Below are positions 1-9,338 of a DNA stretch of 16,732 nucleotides, in pieces. Numbering within the stretch: position 1 is the stretch's first letter; every line of letters starts with the position of its first letter. The position numbers and the translations under genes are program-made. The notes below the pieces were generated by a model that was not told the origin of the DNA, did no database searches, and was given only the letters and a program-made list of their open reading frames with translations. Origin of the DNA: Candidatus Heimdallarchaeota archaeon (GTDB taxonomy: Archaea > Asgardarchaeota > Heimdallarchaeia > Heimdallarchaeales > Kariarchaeaceae); contig WAKA01000052.1 in NCBI GenBank assembly GCA_015523565.1, positions 1 through 16,732 of the forward strand. The letters run 5' to 3'.

Positions 1-448
1 TACCTGCTCTCCCGTTTCCAGCAACAAAAAGGAAATGACAGGGTGGCATTTGGCTATGCTAGAGTCAGCAGTCATAAGCAAAGATCTTGAAAGGCAGAAG
101 CAATCGATACAGAATTATGCATACAAGAACGGATATGGCGGATGCCGGATTTTTGTAGATATTGCTTCCGGTTTGAACGACCAAAGAAGAAACCTGAAAA
201 GGCTTATCAAGGCTGTTGCAGTATTTCCGCCAGAGGTGGTGATTGTCACCTACCACGATCGGTTGGCAAGATTTGGCATCTCTCTGATCCGGCAGTTCTG
301 CGGACTTTTTGGTACAAAACTCGTCTCAATTCACCAAAAAGAGGATCGTCCGGTGGAACAGGTTCTTGTTGAGGATGTTATTGCCATCATGACCTCCTAT
401 GCGGGGAAATTGCATCGGCGACGAAGAGTTCCAATTACCTCTTCATGA
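1..448 (+). pseudogene. tnpA: IS607-family serine recombinase/transposase TnpA, 5'-partial and split by a frameshift at ~79-85
   Basis: Frame 1 from base 1 reads YLLSRFQQQKGNDRVAFGYARVSSHKQRS* (catalytic YARVS at 55-69, stop 88-90). Frame 2 continues KDLERQ...DIASGLNDQRRNL...YHDRLARFG...LVEDVIAIMTSYAGKLHRRR, all typical IS607 TnpA motifs. The ORF-track N-terminus (MTGWHL...) is the wrong frame. Confidence 0.88.
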
Positions 449-481: not shown

Positions 482-3394
482 ATGGGACGACAAACTCCTT
501 CAACTTTTCCTTGGATAAAAAAGGAAGAGGCGGATTCCCACTTCACCCCTAGAAAATGGGGGTGGAAAGCTTGGATTGGCCGCCATCTGCTTGGGATAGT
601 GGTCATCTATGCCTATATCCTTTGGAATTTTCCTCAATTCGCCCCTGATTTTGATCTGTGGCTGCGTAAGATAAGACTTGTTGTGTCGCAGCATGGAGTG
701 GACATTGTCGTTTGGTTGTGTCTTCTTTCTTACAGGTATCGTATTCGGTTCAGCTATTGGCAAATGACAATTCGCCCATTGACTTTGACTTGGCAGACCG
801 AAGTGGCAGTACTTGTTGAATTTGCTGCAAAGATGGAACACCCCCTACCTTTTGCGTCCTTTGCCTCAACCATTGGGGCAGAGCTTAGTTATTGGATCCT
901 TCATGATATCCATCAGTTCTCCTATCTGGTTGCCTACCGCAGAACCCGGCGATTTTTTCCCTATTTGCCTTTAACCCTGAAGCATCAGATTCTGAGCAGT
1001 CTCAAGTCGGTGGCCGCCCAAGGACGGACGGTTCCATTCAGAAATCTGCCTCGGCGAGTGAAACGCCTTGACTTTGTCCATGTACCTGACCTGAATGACC
1101 TGTTCCAGAAGCTTGTTCTCCTCAATCCTCAGGGTCGATTTGCATTTGCAGTGCTTTACCGCTTCGCCAAAGTTGATCGGATCATTACCGGGGAAATGCT
1201 TACTGCCACGCGACAGGTCAACCACATTCCGTTGGTTCGCATCCAGTGTTGCTTGTGGGCATCAGAAAGAGCCACTCGAAATCAATTGAAAGGGCTAATC
1301 AGTGGTGTGACAGAATCAAGGGCTTGGGTTTGGCCCAAGCTTCATCTTTTCCAACCCGAATTGTTTCCGCTCCCATTTCCTCCCTTCTTACCTCAGTCCG
1401 CGCGAGCGAGCCAAGGTCACAAAGGGACTCAAGTCGGTTATGTGAAGTTGAAGAACACCAAGGTTGCTCCGTACCGTCTTGAACCGGAAGACCTGTATCA
1501 CGGGGGAGTCATTGCAGGGGCCATCGGCATGGGAAAAACAACGTTACGGCTGGCTTTGACTGATTTGCTTCTCCGTCATGACGTCAGGATCATTGATTTT
1601 GATCCCAAGGGTGATACTGCCCGTTCTCTGCATTTCAGGCAGTTTGGAACCCCTCTGAAGCCTGGAGTCAATTTTGTGCACAACCTGTTCAGCAAACCGG
1701 CCAATGTGTCCTCTCATGATTTTACTTCCTTTCTGTACAACCTATTGTTGGACGTAATTGGACCGGATGTAACCCCTCCTCAGCAAAAGTTACTGTTTGA
1801 GGCCATCGACCGGGTGGTTGCCCTGAACGGCAACTGTTTGGATTTTCTAAGGGAGATCACCTTTTTGGGCATCCAACAGGGGCAGAGGCGAAAAGGGTTT
1901 CAGCGTCAAACCGCACAAGCGTTGGAAGCCAAATTTGCTTGGATGCATGGGCCATTGCGGGATGTCTTTTGGACGGAGGAAAGTGATTTGACAGAGTCAT
2001 TGTTTCAAAAATCAGTGTTCTTTGACCTTTCCAAACTGTACTCCTTGGTGCCCCTGCCATTGATCCGACTTTTCATCAATTTAGTGGTGTTCTATATCAA
2101 TTTCAGCAACTTGGCCCAACAACAGGGGAAAGTTTGTATCACCTTGGACGAGGCCCAGCTCTTCATGCCCCGAACCCATGGTGACCTGAGCCGATTGGAG
2201 CAATCAATTGTCACCTTGCGTGAGGCAGGGGTTTTTGTGATTGCATCAGGGGTGGATACTGCATTGATGAGCCGAGTATTGCTTGATGTCGGGTTTGTGG
2301 CGCAGTTTCGAAGCGGTTCTCGCGAACTTAGATCGGTACTAGAGGCACAGGAAACGGACTATCAGGATCTGCAACGGCATGAATGCCTTGTCAGAAGGCT
2401 ACTCAAGGACGAACAGCTTCTGAAAATCGAGACTATTCCCTTTGAAGACGAGAAGGAACCGCGGTTGATGACCGTTCGAAGTGCCTCCCTTCTCCCCCCC
2501 TTCCAAACAGAAGACCGTTTTGTCCGTTTGTGTGAATTACTGGTTCGTATCCCTGAACTGGAGGGATATTCGTGGACTGAATTGAGTCGCAGATTGCAAA
2601 AGCATGGACGGTTGTTTGATGGTGTTGCTGAATCTCCGTCACTGTTGGAAAGCCAATCCCCAATCGATCAACATCTGCTTTTGGCAGCCAAGCTTTCCGA
2701 ATTGCCAATCAGGGAGGCACTTCCTCTCCTCGGCACCAAATCCCTGAGGATGCTCAAAGGTGAACCGATTGAAATTAGGCTTGATCAATTTGAGGAACAG
2801 AATGAAGACAAAAATGACATAGGACCTGACCAATTGGGAAAACTAATTGGTATTGATGACCTGTTCAAGGAATTGAAAGAAGACAACTTGAATGACTCCT
2901 TTGAACAGAAGGAAAGGAAACCCGATAAGTTTGAGGAAATGAAACCGCTACAAGAAACTCCCCATAAGTTCCATAAAGGTGCAAACAAAAGTTGGCGAAC
3001 TTTGAGATCGACAGGCTACCGGCACATGTTTGTGCTCTGCAAGTTCAAGAAGGCATCTCTCTATTTCAGGAAATGTCAAAACCTAATAGGCCAAGATGAA
3101 AAACAAAAAGCAATCATAGACCTTTTGCTTGTAGAGAGTCTGGTCTTGGCCGGCCAACTCACACAAGCCAAAGAAGAGGCCTATCGGCAGTATCAGAGCA
3201 ACCCGAAGAATGCGGTGGCCAGTCATCAGTTTCTTATGCTTTCATATCTGCTGAATGAATTTGAACATGTGCCAAAAGTGCTTAAAGATCTGTATAAATT
3301 AAACCAAGATGCAGCCCAAGCTCTTCTTCCTCTGTTTCCCGTATCCATCCGGCAGGAATTCAGGACATTAAATAATAAACTGGAGAATATTTAA
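482..3394 (+). CDS. Membrane-anchored HerA/VirB4/FtsK-superfamily (DUF87-like) P-loop ATPase with C-terminal TPR-like helices
   Basis: 970-aa ORF with N-terminal hydrophobic segments (LLGIVVIYAYILW; IVVWLCLL). Walker A GAIGMGKTT at 1517-1543, HerA/VirB4-type IIDFDPKGD, VFFDLS, Walker B ITLDEAQ at 2138-2158. An acidic linker is followed by a helical-repeat-like tail (KFKKASLYFRKC...AGQLTQAKEEA...PKNAVA). Confidence 0.8.
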   Translation: MGRQTPSTFPWIKKEEADSHFTPRKWGWKAWIGRHLLGIVVIYAYILWNFPQFAPDFDLWLRKIRLVVSQHGVDIVVWLCLLSYRYRIRFSYWQMTIRPLTLTWQTEVAVLVEFAAKMEHPLPFASFASTIGAELSYWILHDIHQFSYLVAYRRTRRFFPYLPLTLKHQILSSLKSVAAQGRTVPFRNLPRRVKRLDFVHVPDLNDLFQKLVLLNPQGRFAFAVLYRFAKVDRIITGEMLTATRQVNHIPLVRIQCCLWASERATRNQLKGLISGVTESRAWVWPKLHLFQPELFPLPFPPFLPQSARASQGHKGTQVGYVKLKNTKVAPYRLEPEDLYHGGVIAGAIGMGKTTLRLALTDLLLRHDVRIIDFDPKGDTARSLHFRQFGTPLKPGVNFVHNLFSKPANVSSHDFTSFLYNLLLDVIGPDVTPPQQKLLFEAIDRVVALNGNCLDFLREITFLGIQQGQRRKGFQRQTAQALEAKFAWMHGPLRDVFWTEESDLTESLFQKSVFFDLSKLYSLVPLPLIRLFINLVVFYINFSNLAQQQGKVCITLDEAQLFMPRTHGDLSRLEQSIVTLREAGVFVIASGVDTALMSRVLLDVGFVAQFRSGSRELRSVLEAQETDYQDLQRHECLVRRLLKDEQLLKIETIPFEDEKEPRLMTVRSASLLPPFQTEDRFVRLCELLVRIPELEGYSWTELSRRLQKHGRLFDGVAESPSLLESQSPIDQHLLLAAKLSELPIREALPLLGTKSLRMLKGEPIEIRLDQFEEQNEDKNDIGPDQLGKLIGIDDLFKELKEDNLNDSFEQKERKPDKFEEMKPLQETPHKFHKGANKSWRTLRSTGYRHMFVLCKFKKASLYFRKCQNLIGQDEKQKAIIDLLLVESLVLAGQLTQAKEEAYRQYQSNPKNAVASHQFLMLSYLLNEFEHVPKVLKDLYKLNQDAAQALLPLFPVSIRQEFRTLNNKLENI

Positions 3395-3396
3395 CA

Positions 3397-3437
3397 AGAC
3401 ATAATTGCCAAACTTCCAATATTAGACAATTATGTCT
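3397..3437. repeat. Perfect 11-bp inverted repeat (AGACATAATTG-N19-CAATTATGTCT)
   Basis: Arms at 3397-3407 and 3427-3437, starting 2 bp after the ATPase stop codon and ending 2 bp before the first array unit. Confidence 0.85.
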
Positions 3438-3439
3438 AT

Positions 3440-3715
3440 GCACTTATGGTTATACCTTCGTGGCAAACCTAGTGCCCCTTTAGTGTCTTACTATACCTTC
3501 GTGGCAAGTAAACACCCATGCACTCAAGGATACACCTTCGTGGCAATCCTAGTGCTCCTGCACTCATGGTTATACCTTTGTGGCAAACCTGGTGCCCCTT
3601 TAGTGTCTTACTATACCTTCGTGGCAAGTAAACACTCAAGCACTCAAGGATACACCTTCGTGGCAATCCTAGTGCTCCTGCACTCATGGTTATACCTTCG
3701 TGGCAAACCTGGTGC
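3440..3715. repeat. Tandem array of 7 hairpin units with a conserved 16-nt core TAYACCTTYGTGGCAA (period 41/39/40; higher-order period 120 bp)
   Basis: Cores start at 3451, 3492, 3531, 3571, 3612, 3651 and 3691. Each is flanked by complementary arms. Type A: GCACT..GGT/ACC.(A/G)GTGC. Type B: (A)GTGT.TTAC/GTAAACAC(T). Type C: GCACT..AGGA/TCCTAGTGC. Order A-B-C-A-B-C-A. Confidence 0.93.
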
Positions 3716-3798
3716 AATCTGAAAAAGGTGAAAACAAATGAACACAATATCTGAACTCCTCACGGAACTGACATTTTGTCAGATATTGAACGGCAACT

Positions 3799-3811: not shown

Positions 3812-5611
3812 ATGGAAACATTGACCTATGATGTCCCTCTGAAGTTTCCTGACCGTAAATTGAACAAGCTGGCACGAGCCAAACTTCAATCTCTTCTAGA
3901 CAGAAGCCTTGACATCCTCAATACCAAAGTTGTCTGGTATCGGGCCCTTTGGGTAACCAGTCCTCATTTTGTTCCGCAATTAAAGGCGTTACGAAATCAG
4001 AAACTGTTGATCAAACGACGAAAAGGGCAATCCATATCAGGGACCATGTTCAAGGCAAGCGTTCTGCGCAATGAACTCAAAGGGGTGATCCCCAACCATG
4101 CCGCCAACCTGAATGAATCAGTGTATCTGCATGCGCTTTCAACTGCCGCCGGTCATCGCCATCGGTTGACAATAGCCAGAACAGTGGTCAAGCAATTGAC
4201 TCCGTTACGCTATACGGAACTGTTACTGTTCGGCCAAACCGATAAGTTGATTTCAGTCATTGTTGATCAGTTCAACTACTCTTGGCTTGGAGCGAAAGTT
4301 GTTCTGAAAGGCATGGCTAAGCGGATGCAGCAGTTGAGCCCGGTGACAATCACCTCTTCTGTGACACTGCCGGATCCCAAGGACTTTGCCAATGCATTGC
4401 ACCAAGAAGGGCTCATCAACTCGCACCATGCCCAGCACAAGCTTCAAAGGCTTCTTATGCTGGCCAATTCTGTCGAGTTCGCAGGGCATCTTCAATGGTG
4501 GCTACAGCAGGCATCTTCTGGCAATGATTGCTGGAAGTTGACCAAGAAGCTGAGCAAAAGGCTCGGAATTCATTCCAAGGATCGGCTGTTTATGCGCCTG
4601 CTCAAGCACTATCTGGCCTATCTTCTTCTTCGGCCCTCTGTCCCCAAATTTCGTGCCGGTGATCTTATCACTACCCCAGTCTACAAGCGCACCACGATCT
4701 GGTTGGTAATGGGGAGCAAGTACGTAATCAAACGTCCGGGTAATGCCTCAACTATAAGGCAAATGATACTGGACGGCAAGGATATTGAGCTGCATTTCGG
4801 CTACAAGTACAAGATTCCCGTGAAAGGCTTGCTTAAGGTCCATCACAAGATGAGGCAGATCTTAAAAACCGGAGATCTGCGATGCATTGCCCTTTCAATC
4901 AACCCAAAAAACAATTTGATCCGTGCCCAATTGATTGTTGACAGAACTGACTTCCGCATCCACCTGCGAAAATTGAAGGTTCCAAAGGCAAAAGTTGTGG
5001 GAATCGATCTGAACAAGATCGGGAAGCACATTGTCGCTTTTTCCATTCCCTATACTGATCCCGGACTCAACAAACTCTGCGCCAAATATTGGCAGTACAA
5101 GGACCTGATCAGGGAGCTGCAAAGCAAACTGGATCGCCAGCGACGTCCCAATCCCCGATTGCATGAGCAAATCAGGCAATTGCATCGTAAGCGAAAGGAT
5201 ATTCGCAGAGCAATCCATAACATGCTGGTACCGCTGATTGCATCTGTCGTGGCTAGTAGTGGAGCAGAGACGTTAGTTATGGAACGCCTCCATATGAAAC
5301 CTCATGGACTGAAGAAGGGATTGGCTGAAGCGGTAAACAGCATGCCCAAAACGGGCTTGCAACTCCGACTGAAACAAGCCCTTCCCAATGTGGAAATTGT
5401 GTCAATTGATCCATGGAAACCTGCATTTAAGATCCATGCTAACTGCGGTGGAAAATTGGATCGAAAAAAGAATTGGCACTATCCTCCATGCAGCAAATGC
5501 AAAGCAGAGGTCAACAGTCATGAAAATGCCGCAAAAATGCTGGTCAAATATTACTTAAGCTCTTCAACAATCCAGCAATTCCTCTCGTCGCTTACCGGGA
5601 GAAAGTCCTAA
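3812..5611 (+). CDS. tnpB: Large TnpB/Cas12-like RuvC + zinc-ribbon protein (~599 aa), possibly catalytically altered
   Basis: Very basic protein. RuvC-I VVGIDLN (D at 5006), bridge-helix-like coiled region (IRELQSKLDR...LHRKRKDIRRAIH), RuvC-II LVMERL (E at 5282), VSIDP, Zn ribbon HxxC...CxxC (5435-5500), RuvC-III-like NSHENAAK. Co-oriented downstream of IS607 tnpA. Confidence 0.85.
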   Translation: METLTYDVPLKFPDRKLNKLARAKLQSLLDRSLDILNTKVVWYRALWVTSPHFVPQLKALRNQKLLIKRRKGQSISGTMFKASVLRNELKGVIPNHAANLNESVYLHALSTAAGHRHRLTIARTVVKQLTPLRYTELLLFGQTDKLISVIVDQFNYSWLGAKVVLKGMAKRMQQLSPVTITSSVTLPDPKDFANALHQEGLINSHHAQHKLQRLLMLANSVEFAGHLQWWLQQASSGNDCWKLTKKLSKRLGIHSKDRLFMRLLKHYLAYLLLRPSVPKFRAGDLITTPVYKRTTIWLVMGSKYVIKRPGNASTIRQMILDGKDIELHFGYKYKIPVKGLLKVHHKMRQILKTGDLRCIALSINPKNNLIRAQLIVDRTDFRIHLRKLKVPKAKVVGIDLNKIGKHIVAFSIPYTDPGLNKLCAKYWQYKDLIRELQSKLDRQRRPNPRLHEQIRQLHRKRKDIRRAIHNMLVPLIASVVASSGAETLVMERLHMKPHGLKKGLAEAVNSMPKTGLQLRLKQALPNVEIVSIDPWKPAFKIHANCGGKLDRKKNWHYPPCSKCKAEVNSHENAAKMLVKYYLSSSTIQQFLSSLTGRKS

Positions 5612-6860
5612 CGGATAACTGGTCGATTTGGCTAGATTTAATGTAATGCGTTGAGACTGTGAAAAGTCCTAGACTATCTGACAAAACGATTGTTATATTG
5701 TTCATGCCAATATTCAAGTTATCAAGGGAGAAGGAGATGGAGGCGTTTGAGATCCAATTTCCAGAGTCAACAACTATGCCGTTCATGAATAATTGATATT
5801 GATTGGGGGATGTATCCATGGCGATCCATTCGATTGAGGATTGATCCAATTGGCTTTCCTCGATTTGTAGGTCGTCAGGTTCCGAGATGATTTGTGGGGG
5901 TTGATTTGTGACAGTCAACCAAACAGTATGTGTTGCCGCATTATGTCCCATGTCTTTCACCAGCAGGGTGACGTTGTAAATCCCAGGTTCAAGTCCAGTC
6001 AATGTAATGGTGTTGGAGAGACCAGACACCCAAGTTCCATAGTCAATTTGTTCACCATTCAGGAACACGTAATACATACTAGGGTCTTCATCAGTTGCCA
6101 CCCATTCGATAACAGCAGGGGAAAATTCGGCAACGGTGATGTTGTTTGCTGCAGAAATTGTCGGGGGAGTGTAGGGATGCGTTTCATGAAAATCAAAAGT
6201 GTTGTTGAGAGCCGTGTTGTTGATCATTTCCACGTTGAAGGGATTTTGGAGGAAAAAGCCGTAGCCATTGAACGTGGCAAAATTGTCCATGACAATTGAA
6301 TCATTGATGAACAGGTTGAATCCCTTGATGTCATTGAAGGCGGCCTCGTTGTTGACAATTGAATAGTTGCTTCCCATTGCATAAATTCCGTCATTTACGT
6401 TATTGTATGCAAAATTTCCTTGGATGGTGGTGTTTGTCATGCCACTGAAAGACAATCCAATCTTATTGCCAAATGCCGTATTATTCATGACACTAATGTC
6501 CATCCCGTCAAAAAGATTAATGCCTGCAAAATCGCTGTTTTCTATTGAGTTGTCAGCAAAAGTGTTTTGGAAACCTTTCATGCCGTAGATTCCACTGGAG
6601 GTGATGTTTGACAGGAAATTGTTGGAAATAATGGTGTTGTTTGCATTATTCAAGTAAATGCCATTGTCGTTTTCATATATTTTGTTTCCCATAATTTGTG
6701 AGTGTGAAATGTTGGTCATGCTGAGACTAGTTACCGAATTGATGATTTCATTTGACAGGACATTAATGTTTTCACCATAGGTGACCAGAATGCCATGTTG
6801 TGCATTTTCCATGGAAGATTTCAATACTAAACAATGGATGAATTGAAACTCAGTCAGCAC
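5592..6860 (-). CDS. NosD/right-handed beta-helix repeat protein with two Ig-like repeats; probably a truncated fragment of a cell-surface protein
   Basis: Asn-rich repeats (NKIYENDNGIYL, NNTAFGNKIGL, NNEAAFNDIKGF), then two ~90-aa repeats (PPTIS...IEWVATDEDPSMYYVFLNG...GTW...GIYNVTLLVKDMG / PPQIIS...IEWIAMDTSPNQYQLFMNG...GNW...GMNNITIVLSDSLG). No signal peptide or membrane anchor; start uncertain. Confidence 0.75.
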   Translation of the reverse strand: MLTEFQFIHCLVLKSSMENAQHGILVTYGENINVLSNEIINSVTSLSMTNISHSQIMGNKIYENDNGIYLNNANNTIISNNFLSNITSSGIYGMKGFQNTFADNSIENSDFAGINLFDGMDISVMNNTAFGNKIGLSFSGMTNTTIQGNFAYNNVNDGIYAMGSNYSIVNNEAAFNDIKGFNLFINDSIVMDNFATFNGYGFFLQNPFNVEMINNTALNNTFDFHETHPYTPPTISAANNITVAEFSPAVIEWVATDEDPSMYYVFLNGEQIDYGTWVSGLSNTITLTGLEPGIYNVTLLVKDMGHNAATHTVWLTVTNQPPQIISEPDDLQIEESQLDQSSIEWIAMDTSPNQYQLFMNGIVVDSGNWISNASISFSLDNLNIGMNNITIVLSDSLGLFTVSTHYIKSSQIDQLSVRTFSR

Positions 6861-7319: not shown

Positions 7320-9338
7320 TTATTTTTGTTTATTTTTTCTGTATACCAAGATGATTAGGGTGAAAGTGCCGACCAATCCAATATTGAGCGGAGAGAAATT
7401 CTTGTTGGATCCAGAACCATGGAAACCGTTCACTGCATCCTCATAACTGACTGCAGGAGCTCGGTATGAAACAACAAAAGGACCCCTGAACCCAGTGAGG
7501 AAGAATTCATTTGCGGCATACATTCCTTTGTCAGTATAGAAGGTATAGTCAGTGACATTCCAAGATCCATTTGAGAGACGGATTTCACCAGCAGGCATTG
7601 GAGCCATGCCATTTGTTGCACCTGCCGACTTTTGCATAGGGGGCAGGGGGATGTTGTCGGAATCCACATTTCCTCCAGTCACATGGTCTTCAGAAAGTTG
7701 GAAGCCAGAGTTATCCACAGCAGTTTCAAAGAATTGGATGAGGCGGTAGTGGGCAAGAGGGGATGCCTTTTCATCTGCCAATCCCATGATGCTTCTAAGT
7801 CCTGCAACGACGCTTGCAATGCTTGCGGGGTTGTAAACTTGTTCGGTTGCATCTTCAGAGCTTCTGTAAACCATGTTGTCATCATCCCACAAATTGTTTT
7901 CAATGAATGAGAATGCAGACAGTGCGGCATCCTTGAATTTGGTATCTCCTGTAAGGTTATAGGCAGTGATCAGTCCCCTTATGGCACTGCCTTGGGTTTC
8001 AATTGTTCGGGCAGTGGTGCTTGGAGCATTCTGTGCAAGGTCAAAGCTGTTGTCAAATCCGCCATCGTTCCTTTGCAGGTTATCGACAAGGAAATTTGCT
8101 TGATCACGGATGAATTGGGTTTGGTTCATGGCGTCATTTGTTGCGGAACTCCATTGTGCCAAGGCAATGATGGCTTTCGAGATGGTTTTGGTGCTGGCTG
8201 TTTTTCCTGGAGTGAGTGTTCCAGAGTTATAGGAAGCAGTGTCAACAAATGTTTTGGCAGTTGCATCCCAATGCCAGTTTTTCATGGTCAGCCATGCGAT
8301 TTTTGCCAATCCCTTTCCAAGGTCTGCGGGACCAGGCTTTCCTGTTTCTGCCATCGATCCAGGGAATGGTTGGGCACCAGTTCCATCTCCTCCGAACACA
8401 TCATCCTGTTCGGGGGCATTTGCCCATTCGAAGAACTTGGATGCCATCCAGAGCAGGGACAATTGATCCCATAAATTGGAGCTGGAATCAACGATGGAGT
8501 AGTTTTCGGGCATTGGCATTTGCATGGACCCTCCTGCGGGGACTGTCATTTTGGTATCATAGGTGTATCTATGTGCAAAGTAGTAGTTCCCTGCATTTGT
8601 AGCAGGATCCAATTGTCCGTCCATGGTTCCGTTGGCAATGTTCACGGCAAGGACATTCTTGAGGAACTGCATTTTGTTGATCAATTCAGCAGTGAGCACG
8701 AACCCCCTGAATCCATCGGTTGTGTAGTCATCAGGATTCACTTTGCCCTTGCCTAATGCCACATTCCCTTGAAGTGCTTTTTGGCTGGAATCAACGGGAC
8801 TGTCAGTCAATTCATTTGTGTCGACCAAATGGTTCTTGCTGAAGAATTCCTCTGCCCACAAGACATTCTTGAGTCCGCTTTGTGCCAATGCGGCGGGATA
8901 TAAGTCTCGGTCGGCAGTACTCAAATCCCAACGGAGTGTGGCAAAATCGTTTGGATTATTTGTATCCACAGCCTGTGAAAAGAATGGTTTTGCAGAGGCA
9001 AATTCCGCGAAAATGGGAAACGGATTCATTGGAGGTGATGCATGGGTGATGTTTGCGGCCATTTTTATCTTCATCATCATCATGCTGAGGTTTCCTTGAA
9101 ACACAGGGCTGAACACCATATGGAGACCTGCACCCGATCTCATTTCAAGGTGTCCCAGATAGTAGCGTGAATACCAATAGCCCTCATTGATGACTTCTCC
9201 CCAACTTAATGTGGGTTCATTTGTTGTTGACGCAGCGTTGCTTATTTGGACAGTGCCAATCAGCAATGAAAGAATATAAAGCAACACTGCCGCGGTGCGT
9301 AATTTATTCCAGATAAAGGTACGTTGTATTTTTTTCAT
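7320..9338 (-). CDS. Secreted, C-terminally membrane-anchored protein with probable alpha/alpha-barrel (six-hairpin-like) C-terminal region; function unknown
   Basis: 672 aa. Signal peptide (MKKIQR...AAVLLYILSLLIG...SNA). Helical-hairpin motifs (ANFLVDNLQRNDGGF; AYNLTGDTKFKDAALSAFSFIENNLWD). C-terminal PL-hydrophobic helix-RKNKQK sorting-like tail. Confidence 0.75.
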   Translation of the reverse strand: MKKIQRTFIWNKLRTAAVLLYILSLLIGTVQISNAASTTNEPTLSWGEVINEGYWYSRYYLGHLEMRSGAGLHMVFSPVFQGNLSMMMMKIKMAANITHASPPMNPFPIFAEFASAKPFFSQAVDTNNPNDFATLRWDLSTADRDLYPAALAQSGLKNVLWAEEFFSKNHLVDTNELTDSPVDSSQKALQGNVALGKGKVNPDDYTTDGFRGFVLTAELINKMQFLKNVLAVNIANGTMDGQLDPATNAGNYYFAHRYTYDTKMTVPAGGSMQMPMPENYSIVDSSSNLWDQLSLLWMASKFFEWANAPEQDDVFGGDGTGAQPFPGSMAETGKPGPADLGKGLAKIAWLTMKNWHWDATAKTFVDTASYNSGTLTPGKTASTKTISKAIIALAQWSSATNDAMNQTQFIRDQANFLVDNLQRNDGGFDNSFDLAQNAPSTTARTIETQGSAIRGLITAYNLTGDTKFKDAALSAFSFIENNLWDDDNMVYRSSEDATEQVYNPASIASVVAGLRSIMGLADEKASPLAHYRLIQFFETAVDNSGFQLSEDHVTGGNVDSDNIPLPPMQKSAGATNGMAPMPAGEIRLSNGSWNVTDYTFYTDKGMYAANEFFLTGFRGPFVVSYRAPAVSYEDAVNGFHGSGSNKNFSPLNIGLVGTFTLIILVYRKNKQK

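Follow-up and report, generated by a model that had tools for sequence, protein, structure and literature searches.

The stretch of DNA analysed here, hereafter the window, is 16,732 nt long and forms an entire contig of a 3.57-Mb archaeal assembly (Candidatus Heimdallarchaeota archaeon). It carries an IS607-type transposable element in which a broken tnpA gene, a gene for an ATPase, an array of hairpins, a short upstream open reading frame (uORF), tnpB and the right end of the element follow one another (Table 1). The carrier is assigned to the IS607 type by the combination of a serine recombinase with TnpB and by common ends at different sites, the left ends being preceded by the common motif ACCGT and the right ends terminating in ATGCGT. 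The TnpA of a relative (L002) passes the NCBIfam IS607 cut-off, and a homologue in G001 matches the NCBIfam IS607 transposase model. When compared with the G001 copies, tnpA of the window is frameshifted near position 80, and its stop at 253 is also found in two other assemblies. A scan of the host did not find a contig carrying the left junction of this copy.

Table 1. Positions of the features of the window, and of the leaders of sister elements
Feature	Position	Strand	Remarks
tnpA, IS607-type serine recombinase	1-448	+	5' part cut by contig start; Resolvase PF00239, E 1.7e-14
HerA/TrwB/VirB4-like P-loop ATPase cargo, 970 aa	482-3394	+	Hydrophobic N-terminal helices, helical C-terminal domain
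Putative archaeal TATA box	3368-3375	+	Within the end of the ATPase gene; an AT-rich box is equally spaced from the first hairpin in L071
H0, leading inverted repeat	3397-3437	+	11-bp stem, variable loop; conserved in L071
Unit A1	3440-3475; core 3451-3466	+	Predicted Cas6b site, cut after core base 14; orthologue of the first L071 unit
Unit B, first copy	3481-3516; core 3492-3507	+	From core search and arm pairing
Unit C, first copy	3520-3555; core 3531-3546	+	T>C at core base 3
Unit A', first copy	3560-3595; core 3571-3586	+	Loop TTTGT
Second B-C-A' block	3601-3715; cores start at 3612, 3651, 3691	+	96% identity to the block 120 nt upstream
uORF, 28 aa	3738-3824	+	Own Shine-Dalgarno-like motif at 3726-3731; overlaps tnpB start in another frame
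TnpB-like RuvC protein, 599 aa	3812-5611	+	D, E and His at RuvC-I/II/III; HxxC/CxxC finger
omegaRNA-like 3' region and element right end	5570-5652	+	Ends ATGCGT; abuts the 3' part of a host NosD-like gene
Sister leaders	L061:3728-3985; L064:2388-2672; L078:1340-1602; L066:3150-3450 (minus)		Covarying RNA; no Rfam match

The cargo ATPase gives weak matches to DUF87/AAA models, and comparison with Foldseek returns VirB4, HerA and TrwB; a word-based search with the whole protein found no relatives. Stand-alone chromosomal homologues exist and are without arrays, and two of them (L041 and L046), in two genomes of the genus, adjoin ORFs that by eye resemble cdc6/orc1. The right-end region has a hairpin motif and an end motif that are homologous across the family, has a sharp boundary in four loci, and is kept in mini-elements, that is, short derivatives on several contigs that have both ends but neither array nor cargo. 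End-bearing copies of the element were seen on G000 contigs C9, C34, C45, C109, C217, C220 and C221; those on C34 and C45 are mini-elements of about 400 nt that comprise the left end, the 5' part of tnpA and the last 140 nt with the omegaRNA-like region, and mini-elements of this type could supply guides in trans. Because array-less mini-elements lie at several genomic sites, the recombinase needs no array in cis, and a role of the hairpins as recombinase sites, one of the possibilities named in the initial annotation of this DNA, is not supported. Further along the window (7320-9338, minus strand) a secreted-looking protein of 672 aa is encoded that has no Pfam match.

The tnpB gene most likely starts at 3812. 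A predicted model of its product matches Cas12f and TnpB structures, and the protein is viewed as a divergent branch because it falls below the IS607_TnpB cut-off. The family to which it belongs (580-700 aa, with an HxxC/CxxC finger) is common in the host order; D and E of the RuvC site are invariant, and the third Asp, at RuvC-III, is replaced by His throughout. Such D-to-H branches of TnpB have been described as probably active (PMC10691335). Seven proteins of 800-1800 aa end in a RuvC domain of this family (P0033, P0038, P0047, P0049, P0050, P0052 and P0060), and those placed in the tree nest within it. A related-locus search with TnpB found no relatives. In the loci examined the family has no array, most relatives being tnpB genes without one, and every member, that of the window included, has an omegaRNA-like 3' region of similar length. 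The presence of this normal-length region at the right end, together with the array-less state of most relatives, argues that the array is not the guide or cofactor of the RuvC protein that had been envisaged; moreover, the array lies upstream of tnpB, whereas the omegaRNA-like region is separate. The array was also thought to lie directly upstream of tnpB, and this has to be amended, as the 28-codon uORF intervenes. The uORF has a counterpart in a homologous element from another metagenome (L071:1965-2057), the pair spanning 28-30 aa and differing by a frame-preserving 6-nt indel. A bacterial-type scan found no terminator between the array and tnpB, and the last hairpin of the window ends 10 nt upstream of the ribosome site.

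The array itself is built on a 16-nt core, and all seven cores of the initial annotation were recovered exactly, against a chance expectation of 0.42 even with three mismatches allowed. Its layout is A-B-C-A'-B-C-A', or A1-[B-C-A']x2, in which the second block stems from a 120-nt duplication, and thus there are four arm sets and not seven independent ones. The 23-25 nt between cores are self-paired and duplicated. The arms pair as stems in the manner first described, with about nine pairs and one or two 5'-side bulged bases per unit; each unit folds better than versions of it in which the 3' arm is shuffled (p 0.001-0.05), and the arms of types A, B and C each prefer their cognate partner to that of another type and to shuffled ones. 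Covariation exceeds that of 500 of 500 shuffles, in a comparison whose rows are related. An A>G change in the fourth and seventh units, once read as merely leaving a G-U pair, is accompanied by T>C in the 5' arm; together the two changes exchange a whole T-A pair for C-G, the register being shifted. An alternative fold of the core (YAC/GUG with a tetraloop) is preferred in unit C only. An assembly artefact is excluded because two other assemblies carry the same units, in one of which a gap of Ns interrupts the last core. When the 16-mer core patterns were searched for exactly in viral contigs, in the GTDB genomes and in 400 genomes belonging to the phylum, the window locus alone was returned, and 11 metagenome matches to the core pattern proved to be unrelated repeats. 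The members of a covariance model run over 83 genomes were the window and L071, two distinct loci in all, and an Rfam scan of the array and of the sister leaders discussed below gave nothing relevant. The possibility that the array was duplicated from the right end, or forms an anti-repeat to it, was rejected, since neither in the window nor in L071 did it significantly match the end of its own element.

The ATPase of L071 is 66% identical to that of the window (about 71% DNA identity in the gene), and the element keeps two cores, both with the loop TTTGT, on structure-preserving stems, as well as an equally spaced TATA-like box, the leading inverted repeat and the uORF. Between the cores lies an unrelated hairpin of similar size (L071:1864-1894), a short stretch of which resembles the right end of the element. 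Most of tnpB has been deleted from L071, perhaps recently, and both cores have been retained. The six arm differences between orthologous units of the two loci fall in bulges, repair a mismatch or create a plus-strand G-U pair; both changes in the leading stem H0 are to plus-strand G-U, and the orthologous stem changes that create a wobble do so on the plus strand in three of three cases. As the changes in arms and leading stem are either neutral or give plus-strand G-U, the comparison speaks for selection acting on a structured RNA of plus-strand sense, in spite of the folding energy, which favours the minus strand (z -6.3 versus -1.9 for the plus strand); as DNA the minus strand folds slightly better. 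The plus strand is preferred for three reasons, namely the putative promoter, the orthologue differences that give G-U, and the orientation of the CRISPR resemblance described below; H0 is the probable 5' hairpin of the array transcript. The initial view that selection acts on a single-stranded structure in which one motif is displayed repeatedly, as in a multivalent protein-binding RNA, is supported, all six arm differences being structure-neutral.

A candidate for the protein that reads this structure is suggested by the CRISPR complement of the host, which has many arrays overall and a complete type I-B operon with cas6b (L095:4716-5477, on G000:C49) and arrays of a 30-nt repeat on contigs C49 and C197. 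The direction of the repeat is fixed by degenerate copies that follow cas2 in the cas direction; five of these (L095:13420-13725, G000:C49) are succeeded by a 1052-aa ORF with no PADLOC match, and several lone copies of the I-B repeat occur in G002. Cleavage by Cas6b is known to take place 8 nt before the repeat ends (PMC5965381). If the 16-base stem-loop of the repeat is aligned with the 16-nt core (TACCTTTATGG versus TACCTTYGTGG), 10 of the 11 nt just before the predicted cut agree, in sense and with pentaloop on pentaloop; the outer A-U pair is switched to U-A, and the extent of the invariant core coincides with that of the stem-loop. The likelihood of such an in-register match by chance is 0.001 for genomic 16-mers near a cut site, and with random pentaloop hairpins it falls to 0.0001, neither figure being adjusted for the existence of three core variants; with register ignored it is 0.09 (34/400), which is not significant, and the window by itself matches 10 of 16 nt of the repeat (p 0.05-0.09) and 13-17 of 30 over its whole length. 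The T>C variant of the core is also found in host repeat copies (C49:13496 and 13628), and the loop TTTGT in a 29/30 copy of the repeat (G002:C395). The cut-site base pair is an A-C mismatch in all seven units, which are also without the 5' eight nucleotides of the repeat, and the 8-nt handle is not conserved. With the scaffold stem, the predicted formation of the loop-closing pair rises to about 0.9 in five of the seven units, versus 0-0.88, mostly below 0.6, in ten native repeats.

The I-B repeat family and cas6b occur together in all four genomes of the genus, and elsewhere among the 83 genomes only single matches at chance level were encountered; those in G017 and G081 equal the control rate and were left out of account. 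Antisense matches of the array to the CRISPR repeat are at background level, as are eight-base matches of the arms to other host repeats, and 93 host spacers compared with the element gave nothing beyond 12-nt chance matches. As no host spacer matches the element, spacers lend no support to a CRISPR conflict. The array was originally said to reverse the logic of CRISPR, a view which overlooked the likeness of the constant core to the part of the host repeat that folds. The anatomy of the array, the conservation of its structure, the in-register match and the co-occurrence with type I-B systems can be regarded as established.

Because the core-repeat match was found post hoc, a second test was sought in the relatives of the element. 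The TnpB of the window sits on a long branch in a clade (100/99) shared with the four TnpBs of related elements, and all four of these are preceded by GC-rich leaders of about 250 nt that start after TATA-like boxes and covary in their 3' part; three of the four fold well above shuffles on the plus strand. These leaders contain one repeat-like hairpin and, after it, a long hairpin that covaries and extends into the Shine-Dalgarno motif. Structured RNA upstream of tnpB can thus be viewed as a feature of the clade, the array filling this slot in the window. The repeat-like hairpin, a degenerate copy that is again in sense and in the same place, matches 21 of 30 nt of the repeat in L066 (p<0.001), 13 of 16 in L061 (p 0.001) and 11 of 16 in L064 and L078 (p 0.014 and 0.021, respectively); it is the best-conserved hairpin of the leaders, lying 78-87 nt from the end of the stretch tested, and the best score among 20 regions upstream of non-clade tnpB genes is 9 of 16. 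Since the sister elements are kin, the leaders are not four independent tests. L066 retains its structured leader though tnpA and the cargo have both been lost. Two sisters carry a DinG/XPD-like helicase as cargo (L061:1435-3708, between tnpA and tnpB, and L064:189-2336), for which type IV DinG is the best PADLOC match, and the leaders of L064 and L078 contain a near-copy of their own sub-terminal right-end hairpin.

The likely binding partner of the array is the host Cas6b, and recognition of the hairpins by this protein, on the sequence evidence given above, is probable. The function that may follow from it is more tentative. The array may be a multivalent decoy RNA, similar to the Racr RNA anti-CRISPRs, that offers pre-folded, handle-less Cas6b sites; we rank this account first because the amplification of copies suits titration, and put it at somewhat below an even chance. 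A promoter within the end of the ATPase gene would drive a plus-strand transcript from about 3397, each unit of which would present the 16-nt stem-loop of the repeat, the part read by Cas6b, on a scaffold stem of 9 bp. The scaffold, free in sequence and conserved only in pairing, would pre-fold the weak hairpin of the repeat and replace the 8-nt handle. Several molecules of Cas6b would be held by such an RNA, which would perhaps nucleate Cas7 but would fail to recruit Cas5/Cas8, and the production of crRNAs would be drained; transcription, binding and inhibition are the steps that we infer. The units cannot yield working crRNAs, as they have no conserved handle and only about 10 nt in the place of a spacer. 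RacrIF1 requires its stem-loop but can do without the handle (PMC10651486). The main weaknesses of the decoy are the A-C mismatch at the cut position, which with the missing 5' eight nucleotides means that Cas6b may not bind the units, the modest match of the window taken alone, the kinship of the sisters and the lack of an element-matching spacer; the better folding of the minus strand and the restriction of the core to two distinct loci also count against it.

The same recognition step would serve a leader that senses Cas6b, in which the hairpins act in cis and their binding or cleavage alters how stable the uORF-tnpB message is or how well it is translated, so that TnpB output would depend on an active host I-B system. 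Such a role is doubtful for the array, but it accords with the absence of a terminator ahead of tnpB, with the conserved uORF coupled to that gene, with the place of the single repeat-like hairpin of the sisters before the hairpin that enters the Shine-Dalgarno motif, and with the persistence of the leader in L066; indeed, for the single-site sisters it fits better than a decoy. However, one site would be enough for sensing, and amplification to two and then seven is more readily explained by titration, the last hairpin of the window stops short of the ribosome site, and L071 has held on to both cores despite its mostly deleted tnpB, with the proviso that this deletion may be recent. It is unlikely that the resemblance to CRISPR is due to chance and that the hairpins bind a protein of the element (TnpB or the helical C-terminal domain of the ATPase) or another host RNA-binding protein, for autoregulation or RNP assembly, which is close to the idea of the initial annotation. 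That reading leaves the repeat-like hairpin in four sister leaders unexplained, and the normal omegaRNA region and the array-less chromosomal homologues of the ATPase also weigh against it; in its favour, the core is found only with HerA-type cargo, the TnpB of the window is the longest branch of its clade, and the repeat match is weak when taken out of register.

Neutral amplification of one leader hairpin, with the symmetry of the arms maintained by template switching, would be in line with the recency of the 120-nt duplication, the variation in copy number from two to seven and the broken tnpA of the window. This is very improbable given that the core is invariant, save for two tolerated positions, across four arm types and between elements whose ATPase genes share about 71% of their DNA sequence, and that bulges have been retained and not perfected. 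The least probable account is that the array acts as DNA, either as bottom-strand ssDNA hairpins with bulges, akin to attC or REP sequences, or as iteron-like dsDNA 16-mers for the ATPase or the recombinase. The folding preference of the minus strand, as RNA and slightly as DNA, and the likeness of the cargo to coupling proteins that move ssDNA would agree with sites of this kind, but mini-elements at several sites do without an array, the element showed neither a relaxase nor an HUH protein, the wobble-creating stem changes are G-U on the plus strand, and a reader of dsDNA would not retain flanks that vary yet remain complementary.

In a broader reading that spans decoy and sensing roles, this clade of IS607/TnpB elements is wired to the type I-B system of the host by a dedicated upstream RNA, with one leader site in the DinG-carrying sisters and an array in the window; we consider this about as probable as its opposite. 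Binding by Cas6b would then either disarm immunity or switch or mature an RNA used with TnpB and the ATPase or helicase cargo.

Of the systems described to date, the Racrs, exemplified by RacrIF1 (Camara-Wilpert et al. 2023, PMC10651486), are similar in that they are encoded by mobile elements, intergenic, preceded by a putative promoter and free of cas genes; they also mimic the stem-loop of the host repeat in sense, as the array may do, do not conserve the handle and correspond to a subtype present in the host. The array, which likewise lies between genes of a mobile element that has no cas genes, differs in that its mimicry would extend to the 16-nt hairpin only, in its two to seven tandem copies, in its covarying scaffold stems, and in being carried by an archaeal IS607/TnpB element and not by a virus or plasmid. 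SRUFinder looks for solitary units with high similarity over the whole repeat, and because the array is neither solitary nor a whole-repeat match it is not filed as a member of the Racrs. CreA is an example among the crRNA-like regulatory RNAs. These RNAs and the CRISPR mini-arrays share with the array tandem repeat-like units that would use host Cas6 (PMC11656645; bioRxiv 10.1101/2024.10.29.618823). The 40-nt period of the array leaves about 10 nt for a spacer, versus 36-38 nt in host arrays; its cores are separated by self-pairing DNA in place of free unique sequences of spacer length, and it has no 8-nt handle, so a CRISPR array or mini-array was rejected.

Two further types of repeat array were considered and set aside. 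TIGR-Tas arrays (bioRxiv 10.64898/2026.09.09.750476) also lie beside a nuclease gene and have units of about 40 nt whose complementary stems vary, but they consist of variable spacers between box C/D motifs and are paired with a Nop-domain protein; here the loop is constant, inspection revealed no interval of box C, 9 nt and box D, and Pfam and fold searches with the protein give TnpB/Cas12f and no Nop domain. The repeats of type III toxin-antitoxin systems (ToxI, CptI, TenpI; PMC3401426) likewise combine a promoter, tandem RNA repeats of 35-45 nt and a nuclease gene, but the array is without the terminator (in the bacterial-type scan) and the near-identical pseudoknot repeats, and the gene downstream of it is TnpB-like and not a ToxN, CptN or TenpN toxin. 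As for the carrier, IS607 elements with TnpB and omegaRNA, their cargo-bearing Ser branches included (PMC10691335), have in common with it the serine recombinase, TnpB, a conserved omegaRNA-like right end, a short core common to both junctions, ACCGT before the left end, and non-autonomous derivatives. The present elements are set apart by a TnpB of 600 aa with a family-wide His at RuvC-III, by ATPase or DinG-like cargo between tnpA and tnpB, and by a structured leader with a CRISPR-repeat-like hairpin. In a literature search of incomplete coverage no report was found of repeat mimics on IS607/TnpB elements, or of an IS607/TnpB leader bearing such a hairpin.

The RNA anti-CRISPRs known from viruses and plasmids reproduce a repeat almost in full, and in the published search a match is retained only if it is solitary and of high identity. 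If the interpretation is correct, a minimal hairpin on a free scaffold would suffice, such mimics would escape existing searches, and elements of the insertion-sequence type would use them too. A small system in which this can be tested is provided by a single host protein together with a 36-nt RNA whose loop and stem vary in nature. The element would then encode either a transposon-borne RNA anti-CRISPR or a TnpB system that depends on the CRISPR system of its host, and TnpB, the ancestor of Cas12, would be linked to the Cas6 of the host without a CRISPR array of its own.
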